DNA from: Candidatus Nomurabacteria bacterium
GTDB lineage: Bacteria > Patescibacteriota > Minisyncoccia > Phycocordibacterales > UBA9973
Length of the DNA: 64,000 nucleotides
NCBI GenBank assembly: GCA_026396015.1
Contig: JAPLXP010000004.1
Coordinates: 1,546-65,545, forward strand
Direction of reading: 5' to 3'
Notes under the pieces: model-generated
Told to the model about the DNA's origin: nothing
Database searches by the model: none
Seen by the model: the letters and a program-made list of their open reading frames with translations, nothing else
Made by a program: the position numbers and the translations under genes
Shown here: positions 6,460 through 36,512 of the stretch, in pieces
Numbering within the stretch: position 1 is the stretch's first letter
How the letters are laid out: the number at the start of each line of letters is the position of its first letter

Positions 6460-6622
6460 TGTGCCCTCAGCGGGAATATCGAAACTTACAGTTTCAGTAC
6501 ACCGTTTCCATTCGCGAGTACGCTCATATGGAAAAGGTCTTCGATTCCCGCACGCAATCAAAGCAGTTTGATTGCTTTCGGGCACAAATTAAAAAATCCC
6601 CCTAAGGAGATTTTTTAATTTG
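6460..6622 (-). repeat. tRNA-3'-derived multi-hairpin element (Arg copy)
   Basis: Direct copy of the tRNA 3' end (6460-6477), conserved core (6481-6541), inverted tRNA 3' copy interrupted by a gcag-loop hairpin (6540-6586), and a spacer hairpin up to the tRNA. Confidence 0.85.
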
Positions 6623-6694
6623 TGCCCTCAGCGGGAATCGAACCTACATCTATCCCTTAGGACGGGACTGTTCTATCCATTGAACTATGAGGGC
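6623..6694 (-). tRNA. tRNA-Arg(CCT)
   Basis: Reverse complement gccctca...tgagggc-a, anticodon loop gtCCTaa, T-loop ttcgatt. Confidence 0.92.
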
Positions 6695-6746
6695 ATAAAA
6701 GCGCCTATATAGGCGCCTTTATAATACTATAGAAAGAATATTTTTA

Positions 6747-6986
6747 CTACTCTGCGATATTCAATAAGTCAGCAATCTTTGGCTTGTTGAAACCAACGAT
6801 TACATTATTATCAATAATTATTACAGGTACACCCATCTGACCAGTCTTGTCCACCATCTCCTTTCTCTTGCCTAGATCCATAGATACATCAAAATCTTCA
6901 AATGCTACATTATTCTCCTTGAAATAATCTTTTGCCATGTGGCAAAAATGACATGTTGGTGTGCTATATACTGTGACTTTACTCAT
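6747..6986 (-). CDS. Glutaredoxin (NrdH/YruB-like)
   Basis: YSTPTCHFC, GQMGVPV and GFN motifs. Confidence 0.92.
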   Translation of the reverse strand: MSKVTVYSTPTCHFCHMAKDYFKENNVAFEDFDVSMDLGKRKEMVDKTGQMGVPVIIIDNNVIVGFNKPKIADLLNIAE

Positions 6987-7095
6987 AAATATTTTCTTGG
7001 CCGACCTATTAGGGTTTAGGCATAATTATTAATAATAAGTTTGGAAATTTATTATATCATAAAAAATTTTCATGCAACACTTGACACAAGAGCAT

Positions 7096-7479
7096 CTAAA
7101 TCAGACCATCAAATCCCCCCTTGTACTGCACGGCCTGCACATCAGCATTATCTATCCACACATAATTCCCTCCTCTTGGTTTTCCAAATACAATCCCGTG
7201 ATATTTGAATCCGTGATTATTCAGCCATGATTCAGTCGCGTCTCTATGATCTTCTTTTCGTGAAGTAAAGAATGTAATAATATGACCATTTAAATGTAGA
7301 TTATTTACAAATTCTAATGCACCTGGTAGCTCGTATGCTGTTGCAAATCTTTCAGGCTCTTCATTAGGAATGTCTTCACACACAGTACCATCGATATCTA
7401 TCAGATAATTTTTCATCCCTACTGGCAATACAGGACTACCTTTCTTTCCATCTTCATTTTTTACTTCTTGTAGATTCAT
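7096..7479 (-). CDS. Capless HAD-superfamily phosphatase
   Basis: DIDGT motif I, FTSR, GKP and IDN motifs. Confidence 0.8.
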   Translation of the reverse strand: MNLQEVKNEDGKKGSPVLPVGMKNYLIDIDGTVCEDIPNEEPERFATAYELPGALEFVNNLHLNGHIITFFTSRKEDHRDATESWLNNHGFKYHGIVFGKPRGGNYVWIDNADVQAVQYKGGFDGLI

Positions 7480-7486
7480 ATTAAAA

Positions 7487-7870
7487 TTAACTTTTATTAA
7501 AAATATTTTTAAACCAATTCACAAAACCATGCTCTTTCAGTGATTCTGATGGGGCAGTATTTGTATCATTAGGATCGACAATGATTAGCATCTTCTCCCC
7601 TGGCTTTACTACTTGGTATTTTTCTCTAATCACATCTTCTGTGCCCTTTTCTGTTTTTAATTTTTCTATAGATGAGTTTAGAGACTTTTCTCGGTCCTCT
7701 AATCTACCCACTTTATCCAATACTAAAGATTTTGTATTAGCAGTCTCTCTTTCTTTTTTGAATAATCCAACCATATTGAAAGAAAAAATCACCAATATCA
7801 AAAATAGCACGATTAGTGATAACGGTGAGTGCCAAAATGTATTTGTACTTTTTCTCTTGAATTCTGCCAT
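7487..7870 (-). CDS. Septum formation initiator family protein (FtsB/DivIC-like)
   Basis: N-terminal TM helix, coiled coil, and IREKYQVVKPGE motif. Confidence 0.8.
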   Translation of the reverse strand: MAEFKRKSTNTFWHSPLSLIVLFLILVIFSFNMVGLFKKERETANTKSLVLDKVGRLEDREKSLNSSIEKLKTEKGTEDVIREKYQVVKPGEKMLIIVDPNDTNTAPSESLKEHGFVNWFKNIFNKS

Positions 7871-7920
7871 ATTTCTGCTATGATTATAGCATGATTTTCA
7901 GCGCGAAAGGCCAAAAGAGA

Positions 7921-7998
7921 ATGCGTACAGCTTTTTCAGTAGTAGCAATACTAGTGATCATAAGCATGATACTGCTTTATATCCCAACACTTAAATAA
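7921..7998 (+). CDS. Possible 25-aa membrane microprotein
   Basis: Manual translation MRTAFSVVAILVIISMILLYIPTLK*; fills the gap between the FtsB-like gene and lepA. Confidence 0.4.
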   Translation: MRTAFSVVAILVIISMILLYIPTLK

Positions 7999-8013
7999 TA
8001 GGAATACAGGGGA

Positions 8014-9834
8014 TTATTTATCCCCTCCACTTCTCATCATTTTCAGAAAGACATCCTGTGTGATGTTTACTTTTCCGTTGGCAGCCTGGCGAGCCTTACC
8101 TTTCTTTTGCTTTTCCAATAGTTTCTTTTTGCGACTGATATCCCCACCTCCTACAACCTTACTGCCATGCATCAGCACATCCTTACGATAAGCAGATACA
8201 GATTCAGATGCGATAATACGTCCAAGAGCTTTACCTTGAATTTTAAAAGCGAATTGATGACGAGGAATTACCTTTTTCAGACGGTCCACTTGATCACGAG
8301 CCTCCTCCTCTGCACGACGACGAGATACGACACGACAGAATGCTACTACAGGTTCATCAGCGACGATGATATCTAGCCGCACTACATCTGCCTCACGATA
8401 TTCATCCATCTCATAAGAGATAGATCCATATCCTGATGTTAGAGATTTTAAATCATCAAAGAAATTTCTCATCAATTCACGTAGTGGCATATCTACTGTA
8501 ACCTGAGTTCTGTTGTCTCCAAAATTTTCAGTCATCTTGATATCTGCCTCATGCTCAAATAGAAATGGCATCAATACACCCACATACAAGAGTGGTGCGA
8601 TGATTTTTACATGAATCCATGGCTCGAATACTTTTACTACACTACTATCATCAGGGAAAAGGTGCGGTGAATATATAGTCTCTTCTTTTCCATTTCGTAG
8701 CAATACTTTGTAAGTGATAGACGGCATCGTCACGATCAATTGAAGATCGAATTCACGAGAAAGTCTTTCTGTAATAATCTCAAGATGTAGCATACCCAGG
8801 AATCCACAACGAAAACCACGGCCCAGGGTTCCAGATGTCTCCTCTTCATATGAAAAAGCAGAATCAGAAAGACGCAGCTTGCCTAGTGCGGCTTTGAGAT
8901 TTGTAAAATCATCTGCAGATTCAGGATACACAGAAGCCCATACTACAGGACGAGGATTCATATATCCAGGCAATGCAGTCGCACCATTTTTGGAATTTGT
9001 AACTGTGTCTCCTACAGATGCGATACCAGGTTTTTTGATACCTGTGACAATATATCCGATCTCACCACTACTTAGACTTTCTTTTGGATTTTCTTCAGGA
9101 GAAAATGTACCTACTTCCAGAGCGATGAATTGCTCGTCTGATACTGCGAATTTAAGATAGTCACCTTTTTTAAATGACCCACCAAAAATACGAACATACA
9201 CGATAACTCCGCGATGGTTGTCGTATTTAAAATCAAAAACGAGAGCGCTGTTTGTATTCTTGTCAGTCAGCACTTCAAATGTCGGAGCTGGGACACGAGT
9301 CACTATTTCACTCAGTAATTCTGCTACACCCTCGCCAGTCTTTCCTGATACGAGCATGATAGTGTCTGGATCGATATCTAGGAGTATTGCTACCTCCATT
9401 TTGACCTCATCCACACGAGACAGAGGTGAGTCAATCTTGGACAATACCGGGATGATGACTAAGCCTGAATCGCGTGCCATTTGTAGTGTTGTCAGTGTTT
9501 GAGCCTGGACACCCTGAGTCGAATCTACGAGCAATATAGAGCCTTCTACAGCCTTTAAAGCACGTGATACCTCGTAAGAGAAATCTATGTGACCTGGTGT
9601 ATCAATAAGGTTTAAAATATAGTTTTCATTGTCAACTTTATGTTCCATACGGACAGGCTGCATCTTGATAGTGATACCTCGCTCGCGTTCCAATTCCATA
9701 GAATCTAGGACCTGATCCTTCATTTTACGCGCCTCGATAGTACCCGTCACTTCTAACATGCGGTCTGCAAGAGTACTCTTACCATGATCAATATGAGCGA
9801 TGATACTAAAATTTCTTATATGCTTGATATCCAT
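8014..9834 (-). CDS. lepA: Elongation factor 4 (LepA)
   Basis: IRNFSIIAHIDHGKSTLADR, DTPGH, GFRCGFLGMLH and RKKKLLEKQK motifs. Confidence 0.97.
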   Translation of the reverse strand: MDIKHIRNFSIIAHIDHGKSTLADRMLEVTGTIEARKMKDQVLDSMELERERGITIKMQPVRMEHKVDNENYILNLIDTPGHIDFSYEVSRALKAVEGSILLVDSTQGVQAQTLTTLQMARDSGLVIIPVLSKIDSPLSRVDEVKMEVAILLDIDPDTIMLVSGKTGEGVAELLSEIVTRVPAPTFEVLTDKNTNSALVFDFKYDNHRGVIVYVRIFGGSFKKGDYLKFAVSDEQFIALEVGTFSPEENPKESLSSGEIGYIVTGIKKPGIASVGDTVTNSKNGATALPGYMNPRPVVWASVYPESADDFTNLKAALGKLRLSDSAFSYEEETSGTLGRGFRCGFLGMLHLEIITERLSREFDLQLIVTMPSITYKVLLRNGKEETIYSPHLFPDDSSVVKVFEPWIHVKIIAPLLYVGVLMPFLFEHEADIKMTENFGDNRTQVTVDMPLRELMRNFFDDLKSLTSGYGSISYEMDEYREADVVRLDIIVADEPVVAFCRVVSRRRAEEEARDQVDRLKKVIPRHQFAFKIQGKALGRIIASESVSAYRKDVLMHGSKVVGGGDISRKKKLLEKQKKGKARQAANGKVNITQDVFLKMMRSGGDK

Positions 9835-9878
9835 TATTCCCCTATCCTACCAGAAAAACACTTAAATTAAAAGGAGTA

Positions 9879-11636
9879 TTATTCTATAAATCCACCGACT
9901 TGATGATTCCAAAGTTCGGCATATTTACCATTCTTATCTATTAAATCTGTATGACTTCCTTCTTCTGCTATTTTACCCCCTTCTAGTACAATAATACGGT
10001 CCATCTTTTGAATCGTTGATAGGCGGTGAGCTATCACAATAGTAGTCTTGCCTTCCATCAATTTATTAAAAGCTTCCTGAATATATTGCTCTGAAATACT
10101 ATCAAGTGAACTCGTAGCCTCATCTAGTATTAGCACAGGCGCATGCTTGAGCATCGCACGAGCGATAGCGACACGCTGGCGCTCTCCACCAGAAAGTTTT
10201 ACTCCACGTTCACCAACGAGAGTATCATATCCATATTGTAAATTTGAAATAAAGTCATGAGCATGAGCTTGCTTTGCAGCTTCAACTATTTCTTTGTTTT
10301 TTGCTTTTGGATTTGCATATGCAATATTCTCTTTAATAGTTCGATGAAAAAGGATCGGTTCCTGAGGTACGTATGATATAGCGCTACGCAAATCGTCCTG
10401 TTTTATATTTTTGATATCCTGACCATCTATCAGAATAGAACCTTTTGTTACGTCAGAGAATCTAAGTAATAATTTTGTGATTGTAGATTTACCAGATCCA
10501 GAGTGACCTACGAGACCAATGCGCTCACCAGACTTTATGTCCAGATTAAAATTAGAAAAAACTTCACGATCTTCTATATATTCGAAACATACATCCTTGA
10601 ATTCTATATGTCCATTTTTAATTTTCAATTTTTCTGGTTTTTCTGGGTCCAAAATTTCAGGAACTTGATCAAAAATATCTGTGACTTCCTTCATATCTGT
10701 AGATGCTTTAACAAATTTTGTCATTGCTTTTACTATTCCCCACAACTTATCAAAAAGGTTCACCATATATGACTGAACAAGAACAAAAACCCCTGCTGTA
10801 ACTAGTCCGTCTACCCAGCTGTGTGCCAACATATATAATATAGATATATTTATACTCACCATGAATACACCCTGAGCAGCATCCTGGATATTCCCCCAGT
10901 ACCATGCGTTACTCCTGTGCTTCTTTTCATCTTCAGTGACTTCTTTATATCTGTCTATTTCAGAGGAACGAGCAGAGAAAATCTTCATTGTTACAATATT
11001 CGAAATAACGTCTGCTAGTGAACCTCCAACTTTCGAATCTGCCTCTGCTTCTAGCAAATCGTACTTCATCTTGTATTTAACAAAGAACAAAGTAAAAATT
11101 ACATATACAACAGCCCATATCATAAATGCTACTGCAATCTTTGGAACTTCTCTAAACAGCACATAAAAGATACCAACAACAGAGAGAAACGTGACGTAAA
11201 ATTCAAAAATCAAAAGATCGTGCATTGTCTCAAACCCACGAACAAAACGCTTAGTTTTTGCAACTAATCCTCCAGCAAATTGATTTGTAAAGAAATTGTA
11301 AGAATGTTTTGTTAATTTCTCAAAAGCATAATTATGTAAATCCCGCATTACATTACTCTGGAAATATGTTGTTGCAGATCCAGTGATACGATTCATAAAA
11401 TAACCCAAAATTATTACTGCAGATAAGAGAAAAATATAATGAAATAACACAGCTGAATTCTGCATACGATCACCACCATTAGATAATAGGTCTAAAATAT
11501 TTTTTAAAATAATAGGAGGAAGGAGCACTGAAGTGAAAACTCTGACAGTCTGCGTGAAGAAAAGTAGATAGAATGAGAACTTATATTTATTTATATGAGG
11601 CCATATATGCCTAAAAATATTTTTAAATGAAAACAT
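9879..11636 (-). CDS. ABC exporter, fused permease/ATPase (MsbA/MdlB-like)
   Basis: TM domain followed by GHSGSGKST, LSGGERQR, LDEATSSLD and IAHRLST. Confidence 0.93.
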   Translation of the reverse strand: MFSFKNIFRHIWPHINKYKFSFYLLFFTQTVRVFTSVLLPPIILKNILDLLSNGGDRMQNSAVLFHYIFLLSAVIILGYFMNRITGSATTYFQSNVMRDLHNYAFEKLTKHSYNFFTNQFAGGLVAKTKRFVRGFETMHDLLIFEFYVTFLSVVGIFYVLFREVPKIAVAFMIWAVVYVIFTLFFVKYKMKYDLLEAEADSKVGGSLADVISNIVTMKIFSARSSEIDRYKEVTEDEKKHRSNAWYWGNIQDAAQGVFMVSINISILYMLAHSWVDGLVTAGVFVLVQSYMVNLFDKLWGIVKAMTKFVKASTDMKEVTDIFDQVPEILDPEKPEKLKIKNGHIEFKDVCFEYIEDREVFSNFNLDIKSGERIGLVGHSGSGKSTITKLLLRFSDVTKGSILIDGQDIKNIKQDDLRSAISYVPQEPILFHRTIKENIAYANPKAKNKEIVEAAKQAHAHDFISNLQYGYDTLVGERGVKLSGGERQRVAIARAMLKHAPVLILDEATSSLDSISEQYIQEAFNKLMEGKTTIVIAHRLSTIQKMDRIIVLEGGKIAEEGSHTDLIDKNGKYAELWNHQVGGFIE

Positions 11637-11695
11637 TATTCCATGATACCAAAAAAATGCTTATTTTAGAAGCATTTTTAAAATATCATTGAAAA

Positions 11696-13381
11696 CTATA
11701 GCTCTCCTTGCTCTGGGGCGACTGGCTTCGAATGCCAGAATTTCTTTTGTATTGCACGATATATATCTACCAATTCTTCATTTTTTACAACTACGAGAAC
11801 TGCCCCACCCACAGCTATACCGATGATTCCAGAGAAGAATCCTTGAGCAAATATTCCCAATCCTGTATGAGTAGTAAAGATATCATCAAATATATTTAGC
11901 ATCATATATGCAACTGCGCCCATAGACACAGAGGCGAAAAATGATTGCATAAAAGTCTTGAAAATTCCAGACTTAATATCTTTCAAAAAATCTCTCTTAA
12001 ACATAGTCCAGATCAAAAAGAAATTTAAAACTGATCCCAAAACAAAAGCTATAGGCAATGCAAACATTTCTGTACCTGGCACTCCATGTACGCGCATAAA
12101 TCCCTCTATCCAATACAGCAACGATGAATCATTTTTAAATAGATGAATCAAGAAAAAAGCAAATATAATAGTAGCGACAGATGAAGATATATTCACAAAT
12201 AATGGCTTCATTGTATTACCAGATGCATAGTACCCTCTCACAAATAGTAGCACTAAACTCTGAGTCACCAATGATACTACAAACAATGCTGCAGCTGCTG
12301 CCGTCAGACGAGTATCAGCCCAGGAAAAAGTATTCGTACCTAGGGCCACACGGACAATTTGCGCACGGAGGACAATCACGAGAGAGATAACAGGCAGCGA
12401 CCAGAATATAATTTGCTTTGCAGATCCCACCACATGATTGATAAATGTATCCATATCTTTTGAAGAAAATGAACGCACAAGAACAGGAAATGCAGCAACA
12501 GAATATGATATACCGATGACTCCCACAGGAACAGATTGCAAATTAAAAGCAAAATTAAATAGTGATATAGATCCAGATTTTAAAGTAGAAGCGATAGCTA
12601 TAAGAGACAAGAAGGCCAAACTACCACAGGATAATGTGAGTGTTCGTGGTAATGATATCTTTATCACAGACCATATTTCCTTCCAATTTACTTTTTTAAA
12701 TGAAGGGAAAAATCCATGAGAAAATACGACTGGGATTTGGACACATAGATGCAATAATGCACCAATCACTACACCAAAAGCTAGGCCATAAACTCCAAAT
12801 ATAGGATACAAGAAAAATATTCCGCATAGTATTCCAATATTATAAAAAATTGGGGATAATGAAAAAACAAAGAAATTCTTGAATAGCTGTGTCACTGTAC
12901 CAATCAAATTTGAAAGTCCAATAAACAATGGAGACAATAGCATCCATCTACTTGTAGTGACCAATAGAGACAACTGTTCTGAATTAAATCCTGGAGCTAT
13001 GCGCGGTGCTAAAAATGGCATCAATAAATAAATCACAACACATATCAAGACCATGAACATCATATATGCACTAAAAATATTATTTATGAATTTTTGCGCG
13101 GACAACTTGCCCTCTTTTCCATTATGAATCTTGTCCACTAAAAATGGCATCAAAACTGTAATAGATGCAAGTGACGCTATAGATACATATAGAAAATCTG
13201 GCACACGAAATGCAGCATAATACACATCAAGTACAGGCCCTGGTCCAATTACATGAGCCAACACACGATCCCTATACAGACCCAGGAGCTGTGACACAAA
13301 TGTAAATGAGCCGAGCAGTAGCGCGGCCTCATTTACACCATGAAATTCTTTATTAATTAATTTAAATAATTTCTTGACCAT
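11696..13381 (-). CDS. murJ: Lipid II flippase MurJ/MviN
   Basis: SQLLGLYRD, DVYYAAFRVPD motifs; about 14 TM helices. Confidence 0.88.
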   Translation of the reverse strand: MVKKLFKLINKEFHGVNEAALLLGSFTFVSQLLGLYRDRVLAHVIGPGPVLDVYYAAFRVPDFLYVSIASLASITVLMPFLVDKIHNGKEGKLSAQKFINNIFSAYMMFMVLICVVIYLLMPFLAPRIAPGFNSEQLSLLVTTSRWMLLSPLFIGLSNLIGTVTQLFKNFFVFSLSPIFYNIGILCGIFFLYPIFGVYGLAFGVVIGALLHLCVQIPVVFSHGFFPSFKKVNWKEIWSVIKISLPRTLTLSCGSLAFLSLIAIASTLKSGSISLFNFAFNLQSVPVGVIGISYSVAAFPVLVRSFSSKDMDTFINHVVGSAKQIIFWSLPVISLVIVLRAQIVRVALGTNTFSWADTRLTAAAAALFVVSLVTQSLVLLFVRGYYASGNTMKPLFVNISSSVATIIFAFFLIHLFKNDSSLLYWIEGFMRVHGVPGTEMFALPIAFVLGSVLNFFLIWTMFKRDFLKDIKSGIFKTFMQSFFASVSMGAVAYMMLNIFDDIFTTHTGLGIFAQGFFSGIIGIAVGGAVLVVVKNEELVDIYRAIQKKFWHSKPVAPEQGEL

Positions 13382-13395
13382 TTATATTTTAAATT

Positions 13396-15741
13396 CTATT
13401 TTTTACTTGGGATAGTTAGTTTACTATTTTTTACTGGTTTTTTTATTAGATCAACTTTTACATCAGGCGTAGTACTTGTTCCTAACATTGCATCTTGAAT
13501 ATCTTTATTATTAGGAATCATCTGATTCAAAATTTTAAATTGAGCCACTGATTCTTCATTTCTTCCAGCTTTTTGATATGATTTTGCAAGGTAGAATCTA
13601 GTGCTAGCGTCAGATAGATCTAATGTTAGAGCTCTTTCAAATGCACCTACTGCATCTTCGTATGATTGATTATTGTATCTGTACACCCCCAACTGGAAAA
13701 ACACAGAAGGAATGTTAGGGCTTGCTGTAGCTGCATTCTCAGCTTGAGATATAGCAGTATTCAAATCTCCTTCACCAGAAGCAATCTGAGCTAATGCTAG
13801 ATATGCATCTACATAATCTGACTTCATTACAACAGCTTGATTCAAATATTCTTTTGCTTTTGAGTTATTTTTATTTACAACCTCTAATTGAGCTTTTGCA
13901 AGTAAAATAGATGGATTATTTGGTGTCAATAATTGAGTCTTGTCATATGCAATATTTGCATTTTCATAAGCATTACTTACACCCAATGGAACTAGGGCAG
14001 AATATACATTTCCAAGATTCATCAAATTTAAATACTGTTTTGGATTTTGTGCCACAGCAGCTGTAGCAGCAGATTCAGCACTATTCACCAATGATTGAAT
14101 ATTTGATTTTAGGGTATCTTTTGATTCATTCTTATCTTTCAATAATGCAGCCATTTCAGCTATATAAACCTGCGACAAGGATCTGTAATAGAAATCATTC
14201 TTGTCCAGCAATATAGCCTCAGAAATTAATTTATCTGATTGGGCCAGTGAGTTTATATCTGTGTACTTAACAGCAATACCTTTTGAAAAATATATTACAG
14301 ATGTAAATTTTTCTACATAGATATAGATCATGCTGATAGAAGAAAACATCAATACAACAAGTGCAAGTATAGAGAAAAAACTACTCCTTGGATCATTCAA
14401 AAATGAAAAATTGTACACAGGTAGAATCTTTTTAGTTACTAGAACTGCCAAGAATAACCCAGTAGAAGCAAAGGTTAACATTGTTAGCAATATACTTGGC
14501 GTATACATTATCATAACTATAAAACCATACAGAGAAAAAATAAAAGAAGTAACAAAGAAATAATTTGATGTACTCTTCTGGAATACGAATTTTAAAGCTT
14601 GTGATCCACGAACTATAAACATTATTATAAACACCAACCACGCCAATACCCCCAAAATACCAGCAGTAGCAAGATATGTAGGAATAAGTCCAACACCGTT
14701 TGTAAAATCTGTATTCCAATAAATTGTATTCTTAACTGCAGCTGGCTTCCACAAACTCCAGTCTAGATTAAAAGTATTTGGACCTGTACCAAAAAATGGA
14801 TTGTGCTTTATAGCATGCCATCCTATATTCAATGTAGCTGAAGTAGAAGGTCTGATGTCTGGATTGTAAACGTTTACATATTTTGACACTAAAACACCCA
14901 ATGATCCACTACCGATCAAGAACAAAAGAGAAACAATCATAACAACCAAAGATGTTACAGGTAGCTTTCTTGGAGCATAATCTTCCTCCTTTTTAGAATG
15001 GATCTGATTAGTAGATATTGAATATACAAAAATGATAAGAGAAAAGATACCAACTAACAACCAAACCAACGGTGTGTTTATAACTATCAAAAAAAATAAT
15101 CCAACTGCGACAATGATATATAGAACTATCCTTGCAGGCAATTTGTTGTTCAAAAACTCAAGAGTAAACAACGACAATATAACCATTAATCCAAAGAATA
15201 AAACAAAGTCATTCCATGAACCAATCAGATTACCTGAAGACATACCACTAAATAGTGTCGGGGATAGCTTACTGACATCAACAAAAAGATATATGATCTG
15301 GAAAATAGAGAGAACTAATGTTCCCAAGAAAAGTGCTTTGAAAAAATGAGATATTCTTTTTTCTGATTGGAAATGTATAGAAGATAAGAACAACACTAAA
15401 AACAATACTAGCATTGAGCCAAATGTCCCAAGCTCAAATCCCCCACCAAACAAAGAAGTGTAAGGTGACGAAGAGAAAAAAGATGCAATAAGAAAAACCA
15501 AAGGGATAGACAATGCAGCAAAAATTATACGATCCTTTGGTATCAGAAATTTTCCATCAAGCAACCTTGCAATCAACCAGAAGAAAACAGACACAGCGAC
15601 CCCCACAGATACGAGGAAGCCCTTACTAGCATCTAGTGTGACAGGAATGAAAGGCACAAAAAAGAAAATTGATAAAAAGAATGTTGAGATAAGCGAATAA
15701 AAAGATATCTTATCCAAGAAACTAACTTTAGGTGAATCCAT
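13396..15741 (-). CDS. Polytopic membrane protein (O-antigen ligase/Wzy_C-like) with C-terminal TPR repeats
   Basis: About 12 TM helices, NPFFGTGPNTF periplasmic motif, TPR-pattern C-terminus. Confidence 0.7.
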   Translation of the reverse strand: MDSPKVSFLDKISFYSLISTFFLSIFFFVPFIPVTLDASKGFLVSVGVAVSVFFWLIARLLDGKFLIPKDRIIFAALSIPLVFLIASFFSSSPYTSLFGGGFELGTFGSMLVLFLVLFLSSIHFQSEKRISHFFKALFLGTLVLSIFQIIYLFVDVSKLSPTLFSGMSSGNLIGSWNDFVLFFGLMVILSLFTLEFLNNKLPARIVLYIIVAVGLFFLIVINTPLVWLLVGIFSLIIFVYSISTNQIHSKKEEDYAPRKLPVTSLVVMIVSLLFLIGSGSLGVLVSKYVNVYNPDIRPSTSATLNIGWHAIKHNPFFGTGPNTFNLDWSLWKPAAVKNTIYWNTDFTNGVGLIPTYLATAGILGVLAWLVFIIMFIVRGSQALKFVFQKSTSNYFFVTSFIFSLYGFIVMIMYTPSILLTMLTFASTGLFLAVLVTKKILPVYNFSFLNDPRSSFFSILALVVLMFSSISMIYIYVEKFTSVIYFSKGIAVKYTDINSLAQSDKLISEAILLDKNDFYYRSLSQVYIAEMAALLKDKNESKDTLKSNIQSLVNSAESAATAAVAQNPKQYLNLMNLGNVYSALVPLGVSNAYENANIAYDKTQLLTPNNPSILLAKAQLEVVNKNNSKAKEYLNQAVVMKSDYVDAYLALAQIASGEGDLNTAISQAENAATASPNIPSVFFQLGVYRYNNQSYEDAVGAFERALTLDLSDASTRFYLAKSYQKAGRNEESVAQFKILNQMIPNNKDIQDAMLGTSTTPDVKVDLIKKPVKNSKLTIPSKK

Positions 15742-29208: not shown

Positions 29209-29238
29209 AAATAGCCCCGATCGGGGCTATTTTTATTT
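29204..29238. terminator. Bidirectional intrinsic terminator
   Basis: aataaaaatagcccc-gatc-ggggctatttttatt between convergent genes. Confidence 0.8.
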
Positions 29239-29243
29239 TAGAA

Positions 29244-29918
29244 TTATTTCAACAAGAAACGTAGGGTAGATACGAGGCGGATTTTCTTCCATTCTGGAGA
29301 TCCTGGATCCTTGTTTACGATATCAAATACTCCTTGATTCCCTCTGTTTACAGTACCCAATTTTGCACCAGAATTTGTGGCGAATTGTGTAGCTGTGTCC
29401 TGGGCATTTTTGATAGCTTCAGCTAACATCTCTGGCTTTACACTATTGAGATCAGAGAATTCAAAAGAGATATTGTTCTGAGTGAGTACTACGCCCTTCT
29501 TTACAAGATTTAGTGTATCATTTGAAGCTGCCTTGGCTAGGTCGACTTTCTTTGTGTACACAGATACTTGGTTTGTAGAATTATAGCGGAATGCAGCCTC
29601 CTTGTATGTATCTTGATAAAGATTTACTGGTGCGACATTGATTTCTGTATCCTCAAAACCTTTTTCCTTCAAGAAAGCTTTTATTGAAGTGATATTTTTC
29701 TCTGTATCAGAATAGAGAGAGTCAATACTGTTAGATTTTACCTCAAAAGTGAGGGCCCAGATAGCGGTATCAGATTTTACGATTTTCTCAGATAGACCTT
29801 TTACCTCGACATATGCATTTTGCTTTGAAAAATTTTGTGCAGCAAAAAAGAATAACAACCCAAAGACAACGACTGCTAGGCTAATAACCCAAAGACTGTT
29901 GTTTTTTAATGTTTCCAT
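29244..29918 (-). CDS. SIMPL (DUF541) domain protein
   Basis: VEVKGLSEKIV, KPEMLAEAIKNA, A.QFA.NSG and KKIRLVST motifs. Confidence 0.85.
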   Translation of the reverse strand: METLKNNSLWVISLAVVVFGLLFFFAAQNFSKQNAYVEVKGLSEKIVKSDTAIWALTFEVKSNSIDSLYSDTEKNITSIKAFLKEKGFEDTEINVAPVNLYQDTYKEAAFRYNSTNQVSVYTKKVDLAKAASNDTLNLVKKGVVLTQNNISFEFSDLNSVKPEMLAEAIKNAQDTATQFATNSGAKLGTVNRGNQGVFDIVNKDPGSPEWKKIRLVSTLRFLLK

Positions 29919-30013
29919 ATTTATAGTATACCACATTTTAGAGATTAATGACAGAATCCAAATTAGTATATTACGATATAAAGAAATAATAATAACCTAT
30001 CATTGATAGGTTA

Positions 30014-30313
30014 TTATTTCTCTCCTTTTAATATTATTCTCTTTTCAAATCCTCCCCTGTCTTCAAATTTTTCTTGGCGGACTTTTTCAACATCCATATA
30101 TTCGGGTAATTTACGTAGAGCCTCAATCACCTCCAATACATCAGCTAGTTCCTCCACACTACCATCAGCATTGAATTCATTTGCCTCTTCTGCGAGCTTT
30201 TTAATCAATTCAATCTTGTACTCCTTAAAATCTGCAATCCTCTTTTCATAAGGAATATTTTTTCCATCCAGCATCTCTGGTATTTTGTCTCTGACTAGCT
30301 TGTTGTATTTCAT
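30014..30313 (-). CDS. MazG-like / phosphoribosyl-ATP pyrophosphohydrolase-family NTP pyrophosphatase
   Basis: YNKLVRDKIP, KL.EE..E, EELADVLEV and RGGF motifs. Confidence 0.85.
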   Translation of the reverse strand: MKYNKLVRDKIPEMLDGKNIPYEKRIADFKEYKIELIKKLAEEANEFNADGSVEELADVLEVIEALRKLPEYMDVEKVRQEKFEDRGGFEKRIILKGEK

Positions 30314-30319
30314 ATTTTT

Positions 30320-30781
30320 TTATTTATAATTTTTTCCAATAAAATTCCAAGGTAATTTAATATAAAATTCTGGGAATTTATTTAAGACCCATTGAACATA
30401 GGTATTACTATTTGGACCTAATATAGCATATCGATGCAGATACGGATAGGTTTGCTGTGATTTTTCAATAAAATCGATCGCTTCATATGCCTTAGAATTT
30501 TCATCACCTTCTATAAGACCTTCAAGTCGAGCCCTCTGCAAAAACATCCTTGAAAAATGGAAAAATCCAATACCTAAAAATGGTGGGTAGCTATTGAAAA
30601 ACATATAGCCAGATTCTGGATTGTTCTTGTAATGAGCCACTTCAAAGCGCGAAATAACGCCCTTCTTATTTATTACAAACCAAGGATGCCGTGCAAAATT
30701 GAATGGGAAATAAGCTCCACAGCTAAATAAAAAAACTTGGTATTTATCGGACTTAATTAAATTTTGGAATTCAGGATTCAT
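30320..30781 (-). CDS. DUF3750-like / permuted papain-like protein
   Basis: FARHPWFV and YP...Y..LGPNSNTYVQWVL motifs. Confidence 0.65.
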   Translation of the reverse strand: MNPEFQNLIKSDKYQVFLFSCGAYFPFNFARHPWFVINKKGVISRFEVAHYKNNPESGYMFFNSYPPFLGIGFFHFSRMFLQRARLEGLIEGDENSKAYEAIDFIEKSQQTYPYLHRYAILGPNSNTYVQWVLNKFPEFYIKLPWNFIGKNYK

Positions 30782-31692
30782 AAATTGAGCTTTTTTAATT
30801 TATCATTGAGGGTTGGCAGGATTGGTTTTAATTTATATTCTCCAAATTTATTTATTGACTCATCTATTTTATGTCTAGCTAGATTATTCGTAAAATAACC
30901 ATTTATATGATAATCCACACCACGCTGGTATGTAGCAGCACCCAAATCAATAACACTAAAACCTTTTTGGGGATCATAAAAAAGATTTGAAATCTTAGAA
31001 GGATCAGTGCCTACACCATGTGATGCATACATATTTATCAACTGGACAAGATTGTCGTAATGATCTTGTGAAATGCCATCTATCTCATGTTGGGAATACT
31101 CGTGAACATCTTTACCTACTGCTTTATCCTGAACCACATAAGTAAAATCATTCGCAGTGAAAACGTCGTATGTCTTTATAACATTTTCACCCTCGAGATC
31201 TTTTGTGAGTTTAACCATCGGTAATTCAAATGGATAATTCCCAGCACTAACGATTTTAACTATTTTATTGTTGGGCAAATCATAGACACCTTTCTGATTA
31301 GCACCTTTGTTTGTAATAGATTCCTTGTTCGAAATAAATGACAATAATTCTTTTCGAGCATTCTCATCTCCCTCAAAAGAAAAAGCATCAATTAGTTCTT
31401 TTTGTTTGAAACTTGATAGGTCTTTAAAATTCACGACTTCATCAAGAATTTTTCTTTGGTCCAATAGTTCTGCAGTTGTAATTTTGCCACTTTTTTTAGC
31501 ATCAATAAGTTCACTAGTCTTGATATTAACCAAATAATCTAATACTTCCAGATCTCCACCTGAAGCAGATTTTATACTTTCTATATAATCGGCATCTACT
31601 AAAAAACTAGAAGATTCTTGAATTTCTCCTGTGGGGATATTTTCATTCTGTTTATCGGGTTTATTTATTAAGCTATTTATCTTATATTCCAT
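30778..31692 (-). CDS. Hypothetical protein with a C-terminal protein-kinase-like fold
   Basis: KIVKI, YVVQDKA, DPSKISNLFYD and VIDLG pattern. Start at ATG 31692 overlaps the upstream stop (TAATG). Confidence 0.5.
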   Translation of the reverse strand: MEYKINSLINKPDKQNENIPTGEIQESSSFLVDADYIESIKSASGGDLEVLDYLVNIKTSELIDAKKSGKITTAELLDQRKILDEVVNFKDLSSFKQKELIDAFSFEGDENARKELLSFISNKESITNKGANQKGVYDLPNNKIVKIVSAGNYPFELPMVKLTKDLEGENVIKTYDVFTANDFTYVVQDKAVGKDVHEYSQHEIDGISQDHYDNLVQLINMYASHGVGTDPSKISNLFYDPQKGFSVIDLGAATYQRGVDYHINGYFTNNLARHKIDESINKFGEYKLKPILPTLNDKLKKLNL

Positions 31693-32054
31693 TACTTTAT
31701 GTGAGTTCCTTGATGGAAAAACATCCTCCAATTTTCGCTCTCTTTTTTCCAAATAGAGCTTCGAAGGGATGTGGAATTCAAAACATCATTCACTATTTTT
31801 TCAGTTTTAAATGTCGCAAGAGCACAATCTTCTGATAGAATTTTAACATTAAAATCCTCTACCTTATAGACAACACTGTCTGTATTTGAAGGTAGTCTTT
31901 CGAGTATGTGCTTCTTGTCATAGACTAGGCCTGAACTTCCAAATTCAATAAAATCATCCGAGAGTAATTCGTCGAGCTTTGCAGCAGAAGATCTGACCTC
32001 GGGAGTAAGGAGTGACATTTCTAATGCATATATTTTTTGTTCGATATCGGTCAT
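31692..32054 (-). CDS. DUF4440 / NTF2-like protein
   Basis: LL.PEVR, LLSDDFIEFGSSG, LRSSIW and WRMFFHQGT motifs. Confidence 0.85.
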   Translation of the reverse strand: MTDIEQKIYALEMSLLTPEVRSSAAKLDELLSDDFIEFGSSGLVYDKKHILERLPSNTDSVVYKVEDFNVKILSEDCALATFKTEKIVNDVLNSTSLRSSIWKKESENWRMFFHQGTHIK

Positions 32055-32066
32055 AAATTGATTATA

Positions 32067-32592
32067 TCAGAATTTTAGAACTTCTAATTGTTTCAAAATA
32101 TCTTCTGGTGAATTTATTGTATTTACTACAATCTCCCCTTCCAATGGAACAATATTCAAATCACCGTAATGTTTTTCTAATTCATCCAAATTTGTGATCA
32201 ATTGATTCGGCTTGGGATCCTGACTTCTCTGATTAAATCGAGATTCCCATATTTTTCGGTCAGAACATACAACCAAAATAGAGATCAATTTTATATTATA
32301 ATCATCGCACCAAGTATAAAGATTATTAATTTCCTCTTCTTTGTTAAAAGGAAAATCAAGAATAATTTTTGAATTTAAAACTGAGTTTAATTCGAGTATT
32401 TTAAACATTGAATCATAGCTTGATTTTATTCCGAGTGGTGTGATCATTAACATAGAGTGCTGTGACATCATAAATATCATCCTTTCTCAAGATGGGAATT
32501 CCCCTCTCTATAGCAAAAGCATTTGAGATAGTGGTCTTGCCTACACCTGGACGACCCCTGAATAAAATTACTGTTGTTTGATTGTGTTGCAT
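32067..32592 (-). pseudogene. AAA_33-type P-loop kinase split by a +1 frameshift near 32420
   Basis: GRPGVGKTT...LRKDDIYD...RNKI continues as SYDSMF...IILDFPF in the next frame (atc-a-agc-tat-gat). Confidence 0.75.
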
Positions 32593-32610
32593 AAATATAT
32601 TAAGAAAACT

Positions 32611-32769
32611 AAATCTGCGGGCGATGGAGGGTAATCTTTCCTTACAGGAACAGTACACCTTTTCTAAATTCTTACAGAATCACAGAAAAGCTTTCCGATT
32701 CCTCCACGCGAGCAACGCAGGTTGCTCGCTATCGCCCGCAGTTTTTCACTGCATTCCAAACTGCGGGTA
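32611..32769 (-). repeat. tRNA-Trp-3'-derived multi-hairpin element (distal copy)
   Basis: 32611-32737 matches 34507-34633 with 3 substitutions, by manual comparison. Confidence 0.92.
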
Positions 32770-32828
32770 GTGTGGTTCGCGGTTGGAACTCAAATTAAGT
32801 TAGGTTGTTAAATAGACCTCCAATTTTT

Positions 32829-33341
32829 TTAAGGCAATTTTCTCATCGAAGTTTCATTTTGTTCATCCATCTCCATTTCACCCCACGTTTTTTTCTTTCC
32901 TTCCGGAATGAAAACCGGGTCCCAGCCAAAACCTCTATCTCCTCTTGGTTTTACTGAAATAGTTCCCTTTATTTCTCCTTCAAATACCCTAAAGTCTTTT
33001 CCATCATACAGACCAAAGCACACTTTTGCCAGTGCTGATCTATCTTCATAAGAGTCTAAAATTTTACATAATCCTTCATTATCTAGTTCTATTAGAAACC
33101 ATTTTATTAAAGGACCAGGTAATTTCCCTAAAGCATTGAAAGTTAGAGAAGTATCTTCAACAAGGACAGGCGAGTTTGTCTGCTTATATGCTTGCTCCGC
33201 TTTATATTTTGTAACTTCCTGTAGATCAAGAGATTGAATTTCGGGAATATCTAATTTGAGATGTTTAATAGGATACCCTAAGTGTCGGCTTAATTGTTCA
33301 GCCTTTGAAGAATTCCCAGTAATAAATGTTATGTCTTTCAC
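32829..33341 (-). CDS. rdgB: Non-canonical purine NTP pyrophosphatase (RdgB/Ham1); last helix frameshifted
   Basis: FITGN..K, EIQ, VEDTSL, LPGPLIKW and GFGWDPVF motifs. SMRKLP* would read SMRKIALKKL with one extra A. Confidence 0.88.
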   Translation of the reverse strand: MKDITFITGNSSKAEQLSRHLGYPIKHLKLDIPEIQSLDLQEVTKYKAEQAYKQTNSPVLVEDTSLTFNALGKLPGPLIKWFLIELDNEGLCKILDSYEDRSALAKVCFGLYDGKDFRVFEGEIKGTISVKPRGDRGFGWDPVFIPEGKKKTWGEMEMDEQNETSMRKLP

Positions 33342-33413
33342 TTTTTGATTATACCAAAGTTCTAAAGTACAGAACAGTGCATGAAAGGATGTTTACAGAA
33401 TATGGTTTAAAAA

Positions 33414-33453
33414 TGCGGGCGCGAGGCAAGGTAATCTTTCCTTACAGGAACAG
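33414..33453 (-). repeat. Truncated copy of the tRNA-Trp-derived element
   Basis: tgcgggcg...ggtaatctttcccttacaggaacag matches the element end. Confidence 0.75.
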
Positions 33454-33615
33454 AAAACAGGTAAGGTTATTTTTAACTCTTTCATTATATCAAATCGATG
33501 CATCTCGAACACTTAAAAAGTGATATGGATGATAGAGATATAAATTACACTCCTCTGTAATGTTTCCCTTAAAACTAGGAAGTTTTAAGGGATGCATATT
33601 ATGGCAGGCGAACAA

Positions 33616-34437
33616 TTATATAGAATTAGCTAAAATCTTATTCTTTGTATTTTGAGCATATTCAGCAACAGCATCTTTAGGTTTATTTATTGAACTTGGG
33701 ATTATAAGTATTTGACTGGGATTTTTTACTAATATTTCCAAAACCTCTTCAGCTTTTTTTGTAAATTCCTTATCTGGATTATTACTTTCTCCAAACACAC
33801 TATCAAATAGTGGCATTTCGGGGATATGTTTTATAAATTTTTCAGGAATAATCATCCAAATTCCTCTTCTTATAGACTCCAGCATCATACCTTTTAAAGT
33901 CCCCGCGTATCGAGGTTTTTTAGCATTCACAAATGCTGGGAATACGCTACCATGATTAGCATAACCAAAAGCACTCTTTGGAAGAGGTGTAGTGTACACT
34001 CCACTTCCAAAAGTGGTTCCTGATGCTGTTCCTCTTTTGTAGAAATCAGTATTGTAGAAATCAGAAAATGTTCTAATGTCTCTAGTAACTCCTCTGAACA
34101 AAACAAGGGGTTCTTGATTTTGGTCGATAACCTTACTTGAAGATTTAGAATCATTTTGCCAGTCCCCAAACCACTTTTTAAAACTTTCTGTTCTAGCGAT
34201 TTTCCACCATAATTCACTTTGCTTACCTAAATTAGAAACAAGACCATCAGGTGAAACCAATAATTCACCTTTTTCATTTCTATCAGATTCCCTGATTTCC
34301 AAATTCTCAGCTTCACTAAGAATAGCGACTGAAAGATTTTCCATATCTAAAGGTTGCTCGATCCTTAAATTTTTCTTCACTTCCTGATTAGAATCAATTT
34401 TATTCCTGAATAGTCCACCTTCCATTGAATTTTTCAT
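33616..34437 (-). CDS. ADP-ribosyltransferase-fold protein (ART-PolyVal-like)
   Basis: RTESFKKWFGDW...SKVIDQNQEPLVLFRG...FGSGVYTT...A.GYA...F.AFVN...E.LV pattern typical of polyvalent-protein ART domains. Confidence 0.65.
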   Translation of the reverse strand: MKNSMEGGLFRNKIDSNQEVKKNLRIEQPLDMENLSVAILSEAENLEIRESDRNEKGELLVSPDGLVSNLGKQSELWWKIARTESFKKWFGDWQNDSKSSSKVIDQNQEPLVLFRGVTRDIRTFSDFYNTDFYKRGTASGTTFGSGVYTTPLPKSAFGYANHGSVFPAFVNAKKPRYAGTLKGMMLESIRRGIWMIIPEKFIKHIPEMPLFDSVFGESNNPDKEFTKKAEEVLEILVKNPSQILIIPSSINKPKDAVAEYAQNTKNKILANSI

Positions 34438-34506
34438 ACTAACATTATACCAAAGTTCCAAAGTAAAAACAGTGTATAAAATGAAACTTATTTTATATAG
34501 CTTAAA

Positions 34507-34665
34507 AAATCTGTGGGCGATGGAGGGTAATCTTTCCTTACAGGAACAGTATACCTTTTCTAAATTCTTACAGAATTACAGAAAAGCTTTCCGATTCCTC
34601 CACGCGAGCAACGCAGGTTGCTCGCTATCGCCCAACAAAAAAACAGCCGAAGCTGTTTTTACGTG
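34507..34665 (-). repeat. tRNA-Trp-3'-derived multi-hairpin element (proximal copy)
   Basis: Spacer hairpin, inverted tRNA 3' copy with a gcgagcaac-gcag-gttgctcgc insert, conserved core, then a direct 3' copy. Confidence 0.9.
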
Positions 34666-34736
34666 CGGGCGATGGAGGAATCGGACCCCCACCAAAGGTT
34701 TTGGAGACCTTCGTTCTACCACTAAACTAATCGCCC
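34666..34736 (-). tRNA. tRNA-Trp(CCA)
   Basis: Reverse complement gggcgat...atcgccc-g, anticodon loop ctCCAaa. The T-loop is atypical (tccgatt). Confidence 0.88.
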
Positions 34737-34824
34737 GTATTGATATTTATACCCTTTTATAGTCTTTTTTACAAGTGATTAGATTTATACAAAAAAAATA
34801 AATCCCCATAGTGGGGATTTATTT

Positions 34825-34989
34825 TTAACCAGTTATTTTAGCTTCTTTGTGCTTTACGTTAGTTCGGCAAGTTTTACAAAACTTTTTAAACTCGATCTTT
34901 TTAGTAACGAGTTTCTTGTTTTTGCTGGTATAATAGTTCGCATTTTTGCAAACTGAACATTTTAATCTTAAAAGTCTATCTTGTGACAT
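34825..34989 (-). CDS. rpmG: 50S ribosomal protein L33 (zinc-binding form)
   Basis: Not in the ORF track. MSQDRLLRLKCSVCKNANYYTSKNKK...KKFCKTCRTNVKHKE. Confidence 0.92.
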   Translation of the reverse strand: MSQDRLLRLKCSVCKNANYYTSKNKKLVTKKIEFKKFCKTCRTNVKHKEAKITG

Positions 34990-35035
34990 AGTGGGTATAC
35001 TTTACTATAAAACGATAAAAATTGCAAATCAGATC

Positions 35036-36187
35036 CTAATCCCCTATTTTTCTAGGTAAAAGGGCACTGATATGGGTCGTAACCTCATAATTGATAGTAT
35101 CCATTTCTCGGGCTAGATCTTCAGCTTTAATCTCTATTCCCCCTTGTCTTCCAATGAATACAACCTCATCCCCAGATGCCACTTCAGGCAAAACAGATAC
35201 ATCTGCGACCACCATATTCATAGCTACACGGCCTAATAGCGGTACAATCTGCCCACCTATCAATACATGTCCGCGATTAGTAATAGACCTCGTAAGTCCA
35301 TCTGAGTACCCCTGTGGTATTATCGCCACAGACATTGGTCGTTTTGTGACATATGCCAATCCATATCCTATAGTGTGCCCTTTTGGAAGCTTCTTCACCT
35401 GAGCGATATGAGTCACCCATTTTAATGCTGGCTTCAATTCTATTTTATTTTTCCATTGATCTTCAAGTTCCACGCTCGGCCACATACCATAACTACCGAT
35501 ACCTACGCGCACTATACCCGCACTCTGATCTTTTTTATTTTTCTTGGCTTCATATGCTAGCACTCCAGAAGTAGCAGAGATATGCTTTTTGATATTAATG
35601 ATTCCATGCTTTTCAAAAATCTTCATTGAATCTGCATATGTATCTATCTGTTTTTGCGCATGAGAAAAATCATTTGTATCCTCGATGTTTGCAAAGTGAG
35701 AATACACACCATCCACGATTATATTTTTCATCTTCAAAATTTCTGGCAGCATCATATCCAATGTCTCTGGCATTACACCCTCGCGTCCTAGATGAGAATC
35801 CACAGCTAGATGAACTTTTACTTTCTTATCCAATTTACGTGCGATTTGATTTACTAATAGTGCATGTTCAAGATCAAACACACCGAGAGTACCCTTAAGC
35901 ATTAGAGCCTTCTCTATATCATTCTTGCCGACATATCCGAGGACTAATACTTCCTTTTTTGTCACCTTGCGTACACGATCCAATTCCTCTATGCTATTCA
36001 CCTGGAAATAATCCACATATGAATTGAGGATTTTTACTACGATAGAATCACCATGACCATACGCATTGGCCTTGACCACACAGGCCAGCCTTGTATCCGA
36101 TCCAATCAAACTTCTAAATTGCTTGATATTGTGAATCAGATTCCCTTTCGAGATTTCTATATATGACAATGATGAGTTTTTCTGCAT
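35036..36187 (-). CDS. alr: Alanine racemase
   Basis: VVKANAYGHG, YSHFA, VR.GI..YG, GYG, GYSDG and GRVAMN motifs. Confidence 0.95.
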   Translation of the reverse strand: MQKNSSLSYIEISKGNLIHNIKQFRSLIGSDTRLACVVKANAYGHGDSIVVKILNSYVDYFQVNSIEELDRVRKVTKKEVLVLGYVGKNDIEKALMLKGTLGVFDLEHALLVNQIARKLDKKVKVHLAVDSHLGREGVMPETLDMMLPEILKMKNIIVDGVYSHFANIEDTNDFSHAQKQIDTYADSMKIFEKHGIINIKKHISATSGVLAYEAKKNKKDQSAGIVRVGIGSYGMWPSVELEDQWKNKIELKPALKWVTHIAQVKKLPKGHTIGYGLAYVTKRPMSVAIIPQGYSDGLTRSITNRGHVLIGGQIVPLLGRVAMNMVVADVSVLPEVASGDEVVFIGRQGGIEIKAEDLAREMDTINYEVTTHISALLPRKIGD

Positions 36188-36290
36188 CTATCAATGATAC
36201 GCCATTTAGGGACTTTTTCAAAATTGCATTTATCCTATTTTCTGGTAGAATATCGAAACAGAGAAAAATACGTATTTATATTTTTCAATT

Positions 36291-36372
36291 GCCTGGGTGG
36301 CGGAATTGGTAGACGCGCACGACTCAAAATCGTGTCTCGAAAGGGGTGGGAGTTCGATTCTCCCCCTAGGCA
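36291..36372 (+). tRNA. tRNA-Leu(CAA)
   Basis: gcctggg...cctaggc-a, anticodon loop ctCAAaa, long variable arm. Confidence 0.94.
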
Positions 36373-36512
36373 CAAAAAAATTAATGGCTTCGGCCATTTT
36401 TTTTGTGATTAGAACGAGTGAACTGCTTCACTCGCGCGGGAGAATCGAAAGACTTTTCGCTATTCATTTTAATGAATCGAAAAGTACCAGCCGATTCTCC
36501 CCCTGGGCACAA
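36373..36512 (+). repeat. tRNA-3'-derived multi-hairpin element (Leu copy)
   Basis: Spacer hairpin, inverted 3' copy with a cgagtgaa-ctgc-ttcactcg insert, aagacttttc..gaaaagtac core, then the direct copy cgattctccccctgggcaca. Confidence 0.82.

Follow-up and report, generated by a model that had tools for sequence, protein, structure and literature searches.

Hairpin elements carrying an inverted copy of the host tRNA end behind tRNA genes of a Candidatus Nomurabacteria genome and its relatives

A gene-free hairpin unit behind tRNA genes

The window analysed here is a 64-kb stretch (64,000 nucleotides; contig JAPLXP010000004.1 of assembly GCA_026396015.1, positions 1,546 to 65,545, forward strand) of the 772 kb genome of a Candidatus Nomurabacteria bacterium, referred to below as G000. 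It contains five tRNA genes as called by ARAGORN. Three of them, tRNA-Arg(CCT), tRNA-Trp(CCA) and tRNA-Leu(CAA), are followed by a gene-free hairpin unit of 130-200 nucleotides (nt), the element that is the subject of this study; tRNA-Phe and tRNA-Ala of the window are without it. A first-pass annotation made from the sequence alone had described a five-part layout at these loci, and all of its parts are present (Table 1).

Read in the sense of the tRNA, the order is tRNA, S, Y', A, h1, a 2-nt linker, X', core hairpin, usually a further hairpin (h3), and a direct copy of the tRNA 3' end that starts near nt 57. S is a spacer hairpin between the tRNA and an inverted arm. The arm consists of Y', the complement of acceptor strand nt 66-72, and X', the complement of nt 54-65 (T-loop and T-stem). 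Inserted into it near nt 65/66 is h1, a 9-bp hairpin with a CTGC loop. The three stems of 8-9 bp quoted in the first-pass annotation do flank CTGC (GCAG on the other strand), and the TCC T-loop of tRNA-Trp is kept in the inverted Trp arm as described. The inverted copy of the tRNA end is present, with an imperfect acceptor part at Arg (5/7) and Leu (4/7). Two unlike stems surround a TGTAA loop at Arg and Trp, as had been proposed; the Leu copy is without such a hairpin. All four copies listed earlier were recovered, but the one at 32611-32769 does not stand behind a tRNA. It lies 1.9 kb downstream of tRNA-Trp, past two accessory genes and a partial copy, and follows an altered 3' copy. The partial copy, at 33414-33453, is a fifth that had been overlooked. 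Folded as DNA, the Trp locus reaches -51 kcal/mol with a z score of -8.9. The arm can pair with the tRNA copy or with the downstream copy, and both alternative folds are predicted.

The inverted arm matches its own host tRNA

Across 132 elements, the arm agreed with its own host at 3.72 of 4 T-stem and 5.82 of 7 acceptor positions, compared with 2.32 and 3.18 for permuted hosts; in 1000 permutations of the hosts the values were at most 2.54 and 3.48. No filter on arm matching was applied in this test. For the 130 parsed elements that passed a filter of 8 or more matching arm positions out of 11, complementarity of X' to the host reaches 92-100% at nt 54-56 and 59-64 and drops to 88% for nt 57 and 82% for nt 58. 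The mismatches are of few kinds: A.G accounts for 22 of 23 at nt 58 and G.A for 12 of 16 at nt 57; a tandem sheared G.A pair would result. Tandem sheared G.A pairs are stable. Y' is looser than X', and its 91 mismatches include 38 that are G.A or A.G and 13 that are G.T.

The architecture around the arm is conserved. In an alignment of h1 positions, 78 elements remained once 7 rows had been removed as second units, as misparsed or for an indel; 53 of them have h1 at 65/66 and a 2-nt linker, and 12 have it at 64/65. The h1 loop is CTGC in 138 of 169 cases, hairpin lengths and linkers are fixed, and a 2-nt bulge in the core is kept. At 31 sites the tRNA copy and the downstream copy disagree; the arm fits the tRNA at 26 of them, the downstream copy at one and neither at four. 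Part of this bias simply reflects drift of the unselected downstream copy. These data support the view that X' is kept complementary, from nt 54 onwards, to the intact tRNA gene copy.

A family present in most genomes of the order

In G000, a full element follows 13 of the 41 tRNA/tmRNA genes; a partial one follows tRNA-His, and two copies are displaced. In a covariance model built from 14 G000 copies, 14 of 21 pairs changed on both sides, a figure equalled in none of 500 shuffles; since the 14 copies are mutually related, this is not to be read as a probability. When 59 matches were fitted to the model, 220 cells were changed on both sides and 9 on one side, with the reservation that alignments fitted to a model lean towards the modelled structure. 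The covariation anticipated by the first-pass annotation is thus found, as is the occurrence at other tRNAs and in other genomes. Covariance models match 109 of 151 genomes of the order and, counted for the genus, 89 of 93 genomes; the family uses 43 tRNA/tmRNA types as hosts. Outside the order, one of 149 genomes drawn phylum-wide matched, with a model trained on this order that diverged kin may escape. An exact-pattern search of GTDB returned at least 123 stretches; among the matches listed, 80 stretches carry depositor labels that are mostly Paceibacterota, Paceibacteria, Nomurabacteria or Saccharibacteria.

Docking to tRNA genes is strict. Taking the best match in each of 29 other genomes, 27 lie at most 125 nt from a tRNA; of the other two, one is the second unit of a tandem and the other follows a tRNA split by an N gap. 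Another 81 elements comprise 51 within 125 nt of a tRNA, 10 at 126-700 nt and 20 without a tRNA call, of which 11 are in our reading displaced copies and 9 are due to contig ends or intron splits. In Rfam, only tRNA, tmRNA, rRNA and one group I intron reach the gathering score, and the element matches no family. No element was matched among INPHARED phages. In IMG/VR, three patterns gave no match and a fourth gave three, two of which look like chance. The third is an element-like array of family units (L318) on a 34.7-kb contig classed as viral, and no tRNA was called within 6 kb of sequence there.

Variants of the unit were also seen. At G000:C4:53030-53249 a second, h1-less core type stands behind a protein gene whose end looks like ribosomal protein S9 and is copied there in short form, both inverted and direct; targets of the family are not limited to T-loops. 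At tRNA-Glu(TTC) (G000:C4:86384-86620; L010, L024), a full element has an h1-less core nested inside its spacer; this core docks at the acceptor end. The tRNA-Thr(TGT) locus at G000:C6:10040-10330 has three direct copies of the 3' end ending in CCA, two of them in a 76-nt tandem repeat, and no element. Genome G158 has two tRNA-Arg(CCT) genes (L100 on C2, L096 on C1) followed by related elements with different cores, and at L245 an element behind a tRNA 3' end shares its locus with a group I intron match.

Patchy occupancy, transfer and exchange of cores

Occupancy differs between orthologous loci of the genus: 10 of 25 tRNA-Trp loci are filled (nine by model, one h1-less unit by eye) and 4 of 19 tRNA-Leu(CAA) loci. 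Unlike cores are found at one orthologous tRNA. At two filled loci the terminator of the empty sites sits, by eye, behind the downstream copy, which indicates that S is part of the element. In a close strain, a contig from another study (3 differences in 763 nt) joins 36354 to 36492, skipping 137 nt, with 13 letters that fit either side; the close strain thus appears to hold an empty Leu site. Tandem units occur, including perfect ones, together with arrays of unlike units in changing order.

The Trp element of the window is identical to that of genome G357 at 151 of 160 positions, where the neighbouring DNA is 71% identical, and to that of G033 at 137 of 160 (neighbouring DNA 64%); six other occupied loci share 88-120 of the 160. 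In G357 a TCC-type arm is kept beside a local tRNA-Trp with TTC, and in G033 both arms and the direct copy fit a foreign tRNA-Trp allele. Arms therefore travel with the element, and the earlier proposal that it is rebuilt from its own tRNA is not supported if this is taken to mean fresh copying at each insertion. Cores move as well. Among 86 scaffolds, 7 of the 8 core pairs with at least 90% identity stand at different tRNAs, and in G099 a Leu(TAA) arm has a Lys-type T-loop base along with a shared core. Going by the allele and core-pair patterns, left halves behave as tRNA-specific lineages and cores as exchangeable modules. The picture drawn in the first-pass annotation, of a structure-conserved, tRNA-specific and uncatalogued element with signs of mobility, is borne out by covariation, host match, the lack of an Rfam family and patchy occupancy.

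A proposed mechanism

The unit (X-Y copy, S, Y'-h1-X', core and h3) is bounded by two direct copies of tRNA nt 57-73. We suggest, at roughly even odds (about 0.5), that its anatomy, host matching, patchy occupancy, arrays and core swapping reflect a non-autonomous mini integrative element working in the form of folded single-stranded DNA, with integration at the T-loop through a fold-back attachment site. An excised top-strand circle would fold into a dumbbell whose stem restores the tRNA 3' end as a duplex copy, an attP-like site read by structure and not by sequence. Insertion would take a single strand exchange near C56/G57 in the T-loop, which replication would resolve, and the tRNA would stay intact. 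The catalyst would act in trans. Uptake of DNA from relatives may carry units into new species, and core swapping at the shared T-loop sequence may give rise to new tRNA specificities. From the anatomy one can predict which strand folds, where the junction lies (near nt 56/57) and that raw reads should contain a circle junction.

Several observations weigh against this proposal. No circle or intermediate was seen in the contigs, and scans of neighbours and of genomes of the order found no enzyme for the movement of the element; when the neighbours of 183 elements were clustered, nothing mobility-related recurred. The putative crossover at 56/57 is placed by the start of similarity, and a rough alignment shows a match to C56 in only 40% of the direct copies. 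h1 is absent from some units and shifted by one base in the 12 of 78 noted above. S also has RNA-type loops above shuffle level (11 GNRA, 6 UNCG). A deletion between direct repeats could account for the Leu empty site; in that contig the letters between the join points are marked as not known. High identity between distant genomes could be due in part to purifying selection. The copies are related, so that counts overstate independence.

A bolder form of the proposal, which we think less likely than not, is an undescribed, programmable single-stranded DNA insertion system: a conserved DNA scaffold would carry an exchangeable DNA guide of 12+7 bases pairing with the tRNA gene, and one trans-acting enzyme of the order would serve more than 40 tRNA/tmRNA T-loops with specificity by base pairing alone. 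If the folded strand is indeed read by structure and the target arm can be exchanged, the enzyme would be a DNA integrase programmed by base pairing, and part of the turnover seen at tRNA hotspots of these reduced genomes would be accounted for by the element. In any case, this large uncultured bacterial order has the family at many of its tRNA loci.

The search for a mobilising enzyme

G000 encodes two tyrosine recombinases, four serine recombinase matches, two Y1 transposases, one full and one broken reverse transcriptase (RT) and one GIY-YIG match, none of which flanks an element. One of the tyrosine recombinases, a XerC-like protein of 305 amino acids (aa), is a candidate catalyst. Pfam scans of 119 + 30 proteins, mostly neighbours, found one serine recombinase, which ends at the adjacent tRNA. 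Tyrosine recombinases and Y1 transposases were absent among the scanned neighbours and the recurring neighbour clusters; clusters spanning at least four tRNA types are mainly syntenic housekeeping genes. None of the partners suggested at first, an adjoining tyrosine recombinase, a Y1/REP transposase or a GIY-YIG nuclease, was found linked to the element. Candidates left without support are GIY-YIG (a single match each in the element-rich genomes G000, G041 and G158), Y2, IS110, RT, serine recombinase and TrmI.

A 446-aa RT at G000:C14:1400-2740 (L015) lies beside a DUF4238/SEC-C gene, with which it possibly forms a defence module; the broken RT fragment is at G000:C6:46704. A family of 200-240 aa proteins stands beside four tRNA loci (L086, L061, L109, L111); by eye its members look like a helix-turn-helix (HTH) joined to a LAGLIDADG-like part, and the one member scanned had no Pfam match.

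The main rival, which we regard as unlikely, is that the element is the substrate of an HUH transposase (rolling-circle or Y1). The last bases of the arm, beside the core hairpin, would guide cleavage 3' of GTTC/GTCC, and rolling-circle replication would give rise to arrays. Direct copies start at nt 57, after GTTC/GTCC, and every T-loop has that motif at tRNA nt 53-56. In the portion of PMC13181058 available to us, CTTG, GTTC and GTCC are given as targets of the IS91 family. The supposed guide changes from GAA to GGA with TCC tRNAs, perfect tandem units exist, and over the 151 genomes of the order Y1 gene number shows a weak positive trend with element count (rho 0.22, p 0.007). However, the presence of Y1 is not clearly tied to that of the element (71/38/20/22, p 0.063), 5 of 18 element-rich genomes have no Y1 match, and the two Y1 genes of G000 are flanked by their own, different palindromes. 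Y2 transposases occur in 2 of the 151 genomes, in unrelated contexts, and no enzyme emerged for this route either.

DNA or RNA as the folding molecule

Both a single-stranded DNA and an RNA had been considered in the first-pass annotation; the folding features are more DNA-like than RNA-like. In 135 element regions, cGNAg mini-hairpins in S number 33 on the sense strand, 4 on the antisense strand and about 4 in shuffles, and GNA triloops in the core 82, 14 and about 14; GNRA (15) and UUCG (1) loops in the core are not clearly enriched. These loop counts, like the pair counts below, come from related sequences, and the shuffle is crude. Mini-hairpins of the GCGNAGC type are described in the available part of PMC13037366 as extraordinarily stable in DNA, the RNA form of GCGAAAGC being much less so. 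The GNA triloops of the tRNA-sense strand, together with the tolerance of G.A mismatches, point to the tRNA-sense DNA strand rather than RNA as the folding molecule, though they do not amount to proof. A loop-loop contact between h1 and h3, and a likeness to hammerhead, hairpin or theta ribozymes, were weighed by eye against consensus motifs and dropped.

An RNA device co-transcribed with the tRNA is a distinctly unlikely alternative. The arm would invade the T-arm and acceptor end of the precursor, the downstream copy would release it, and the device would control processing or protect the tRNA. Such a role would account for an arm that tracks the tRNA copy at 26 of 31 sites and for the sense-strand excess of G.T over A.C in h1 (29 against 6, beside 1477 Watson-Crick pairs). 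Many spacers are short and without a T run, and a terminator-like call was obtained in only 1/3 spacers scanned at the Trp and Leu loci. Yet G.T makes up 1.9% of h1 pairs, compared with 18 in 395 pairs of host T-stems. The core is dominated by the GNA triloops, and a related mini-hairpin is described in PMC13037366 as much less stable in its RNA form than as DNA. Patchy presence and displaced copies fit a regulator poorly, and there is no Rfam match.

Weaker alternatives

A selfish hairpin that needs no enzyme at all seems improbable to us. On incoming or lagging-strand DNA the arm would hide the upstream tRNA copy, with gain and loss by annealing or slippage between the direct repeats. The failure to find a dedicated enzyme, the prediction of both alternative folds and the precise loss between repeats at the Leu locus of the close strain are all in keeping with this. 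Fixed hairpin lengths, linkers and loops, the CTGC loop of h1 above all, and the retained core bulge instead suggest recognition by a protein.

Fresh copying of the tRNA end by an RT, with the mismatches at nt 57-58 as a signature of m1A58 misreading, is very improbable. It would explain why mismatches concentrate at nt 58 and 57, but no convincing TrmI-like gene was found in five genomes (best E 3e-6, partial), none of five element-rich genomes has an RT match, the RTs of G000 lie away from elements, and arms can fit foreign alleles, by which this explanation is largely refuted.

That the elements are scars of islands integrated by tRNA-targeting large serine recombinases is extremely improbable, because serine recombinases are not associated with elements in the 151 genomes (67/42/29/13, p 0.45), island-like ends displace the element and do not form it, element halves were never seen as the two ends of intact recombinase islands, and the island paper, in the part available, describes a direct repeat only (PMC3146451).

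Comparison with known systems

We return to the folded, single-stranded mini integrative element and to how it compares with systems already described. CTXphi forms tandem prophages. Like CTXphi and IMEX, which rely on XerC/D, the element has a fold-back that rebuilds a duplex target (here from predicted folds and the permutation test), no integrase of its own and tandem products. Intra-strand pairing in the folded attP(+) of CTXphi can rebuild a duplex copy of the target, as set out in the available text of PMC4246890. Unlike CTXphi and IMEX, the element targets the T-arm of its 43 tRNA/tmRNA types and not dif, and it carries no phage genes. Integron attC sites, as far as the accessible part of PMC4792948 covers them, keep their structure while the sequence varies, have extruded bases and branches and recombine as a folded strand. 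The element likewise conserves structure without conserving sequence, has extrahelical features and forms arrays of unlike units in changing order, but no integrase or attI was seen beside any of its loci, its arms are host-tRNA sequence and its units are normally empty.

REP and BIME sequences are modular hairpins at gene ends. The element resembles them, and the non-autonomous derivatives of IS200/IS605 and IS91, in its modular hairpins, and its T-loop tetranucleotide equals the IS91-family targets (PMC13181058). It differs from REP/RAYT, IS200/IS605 and IS91 in its target-derived arms, its strict tRNA docking, the lack of a flanking transposase and its occurrence in genomes without Y1 or Y2 matches. 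IS110 elements with bridge or seek RNA and retroelements or diversity-generating retroelements depend on enzymes for which the element-rich genomes scanned, five for each enzyme, gave no match (a DEDD recombinase and an RT, respectively). A direct repeat of the tRNA 3' end flanks the element as it flanks tRNA/tmRNA-targeting islands. It differs from these islands and from integrase-less islands mobilisable in cis, as exemplified by the Dehalococcoides ssrA islands and DsiB (PMC3146451): the element has 130-200 nt, no genes and an inverted target copy with an inserted hairpin. Nor does it have an own or linked integrase as integrative islands do, or any link to serine recombinase content.

The element thus fails the tested defining features of attC cassettes, IMEX, IS91, REP/RAYT, IS110 and recombinase islands, and no description of the family was found in open-access literature or Rfam. 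The family is real and uncatalogued, and in its workings it resembles a folded single-strand attachment site carried by a minimal tRNA islet.

Recombinase islands, displaced copies and other features of the window

Serine recombinase islands use the same tRNA ends, as the accessible part of PMC3146451 indicates. In about half of 16 gene-carrying units, the altered upstream copy translated on the opposite strand looks, by eye, like the peptide tail of a serine recombinase of G000, and such tail-like sequence precedes many displaced elements. We therefore read altered upstream copies as island ends and claim no transport of cargo; the idea that they are selected decay for carrying cargo was dropped, since the opposite strand gives recombinase-like tails. 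At the Trp locus, the altered 3' copy is probably the right end of a decayed island, and the two accessory genes probably came with serine recombinase islands. A separate case is G000:C9:1767-3746 (L021). Here the gene for a serine recombinase of 564 aa has its end in the antisense of tRNA-Asn, and the T-loop of this tRNA is altered beyond nt 57; a second-type core with a copy of the tRNA 5' end lies upstream of this tRNA.

Table 1. Coordinates of the elements, their host tRNA genes and neighbouring features in the 64-kb window.
Feature	Position	Strand	Called by
tRNA-Arg(CCT), host gene	6622..6694	-	ARAGORN
Arg spacer hairpin S, A/T-rich, continuous with fold-back onto tRNA end	6584..6621	-	
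Arg inverted acceptor-strand copy Y', 5/7 complementary	6577..6583	-	
Arg h1: A + 9-bp stem, CTGC loop + GT	6552..6576	-	
Arg X', complement of tRNA nt 54-65, 12/12	6540..6551	-	
Arg core hairpin and h3 (TGTAA loop, h3 = 6481-6495)	6481..6539	-	
Arg direct copy of tRNA 3' end, from about nt 57	6460..6480	-	
tRNA-Trp(CCA), host gene with TCC T-loop	34665..34736	-	ARAGORN
Trp spacer hairpin S, common to Trp elements of several genomes in genus	34634..34663	-	
Trp copy 1 inverted arm and h1: Y' 34627-34633, h1 34604-34625, X' 34590-34601	34590..34633	-	
Trp copy 1 core and h3 (h3 = 34534-34546)	34534..34589	-	
Trp copy 1 direct copy of tRNA 3' end	34512..34532	-	
Accessory gene, 281 aa, ART-PolyVal match below cut-off (E 8.5e-5)	33616..34461	-	
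Partial copy: h3 and diverged direct copy	33414..33453	-	
Accessory gene, Ham1-family, 170 aa	32829..33341	-	
Altered tRNA-Trp 3' copy; opposite strand reads as short peptide tail like tRNA-targeting serine recombinases	32761..32789	-	
Trp copy 2 (displaced): S, Y' 32731-32737, h1 32708-32729, X' 32694-32705, core, h3, direct copy 32616-32636	32616..32760	-	
tRNA-Leu(CAA), host gene	36291..36373	+	ARAGORN
Leu spacer hairpin S, terminator-like on both strands	36374..36405	+	
Leu inverted arm and h1: Y' 36406-36412, h1 36414-36435, X' 36438-36449 (12/12)	36406..36449	+	
Leu core hairpin, without h3	36450..36492	+	
Leu direct copy from nt 57, differs from tRNA at nt 69	36493..36511	+	

Two further features of the window were recorded. 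The 281-aa gene and the Ham1-family gene at the Trp locus have near-identical upstream sequence ending in TATAAT, and positions 38687-40198 encode an EPSP synthase-family protein with an N-terminal HTH domain.

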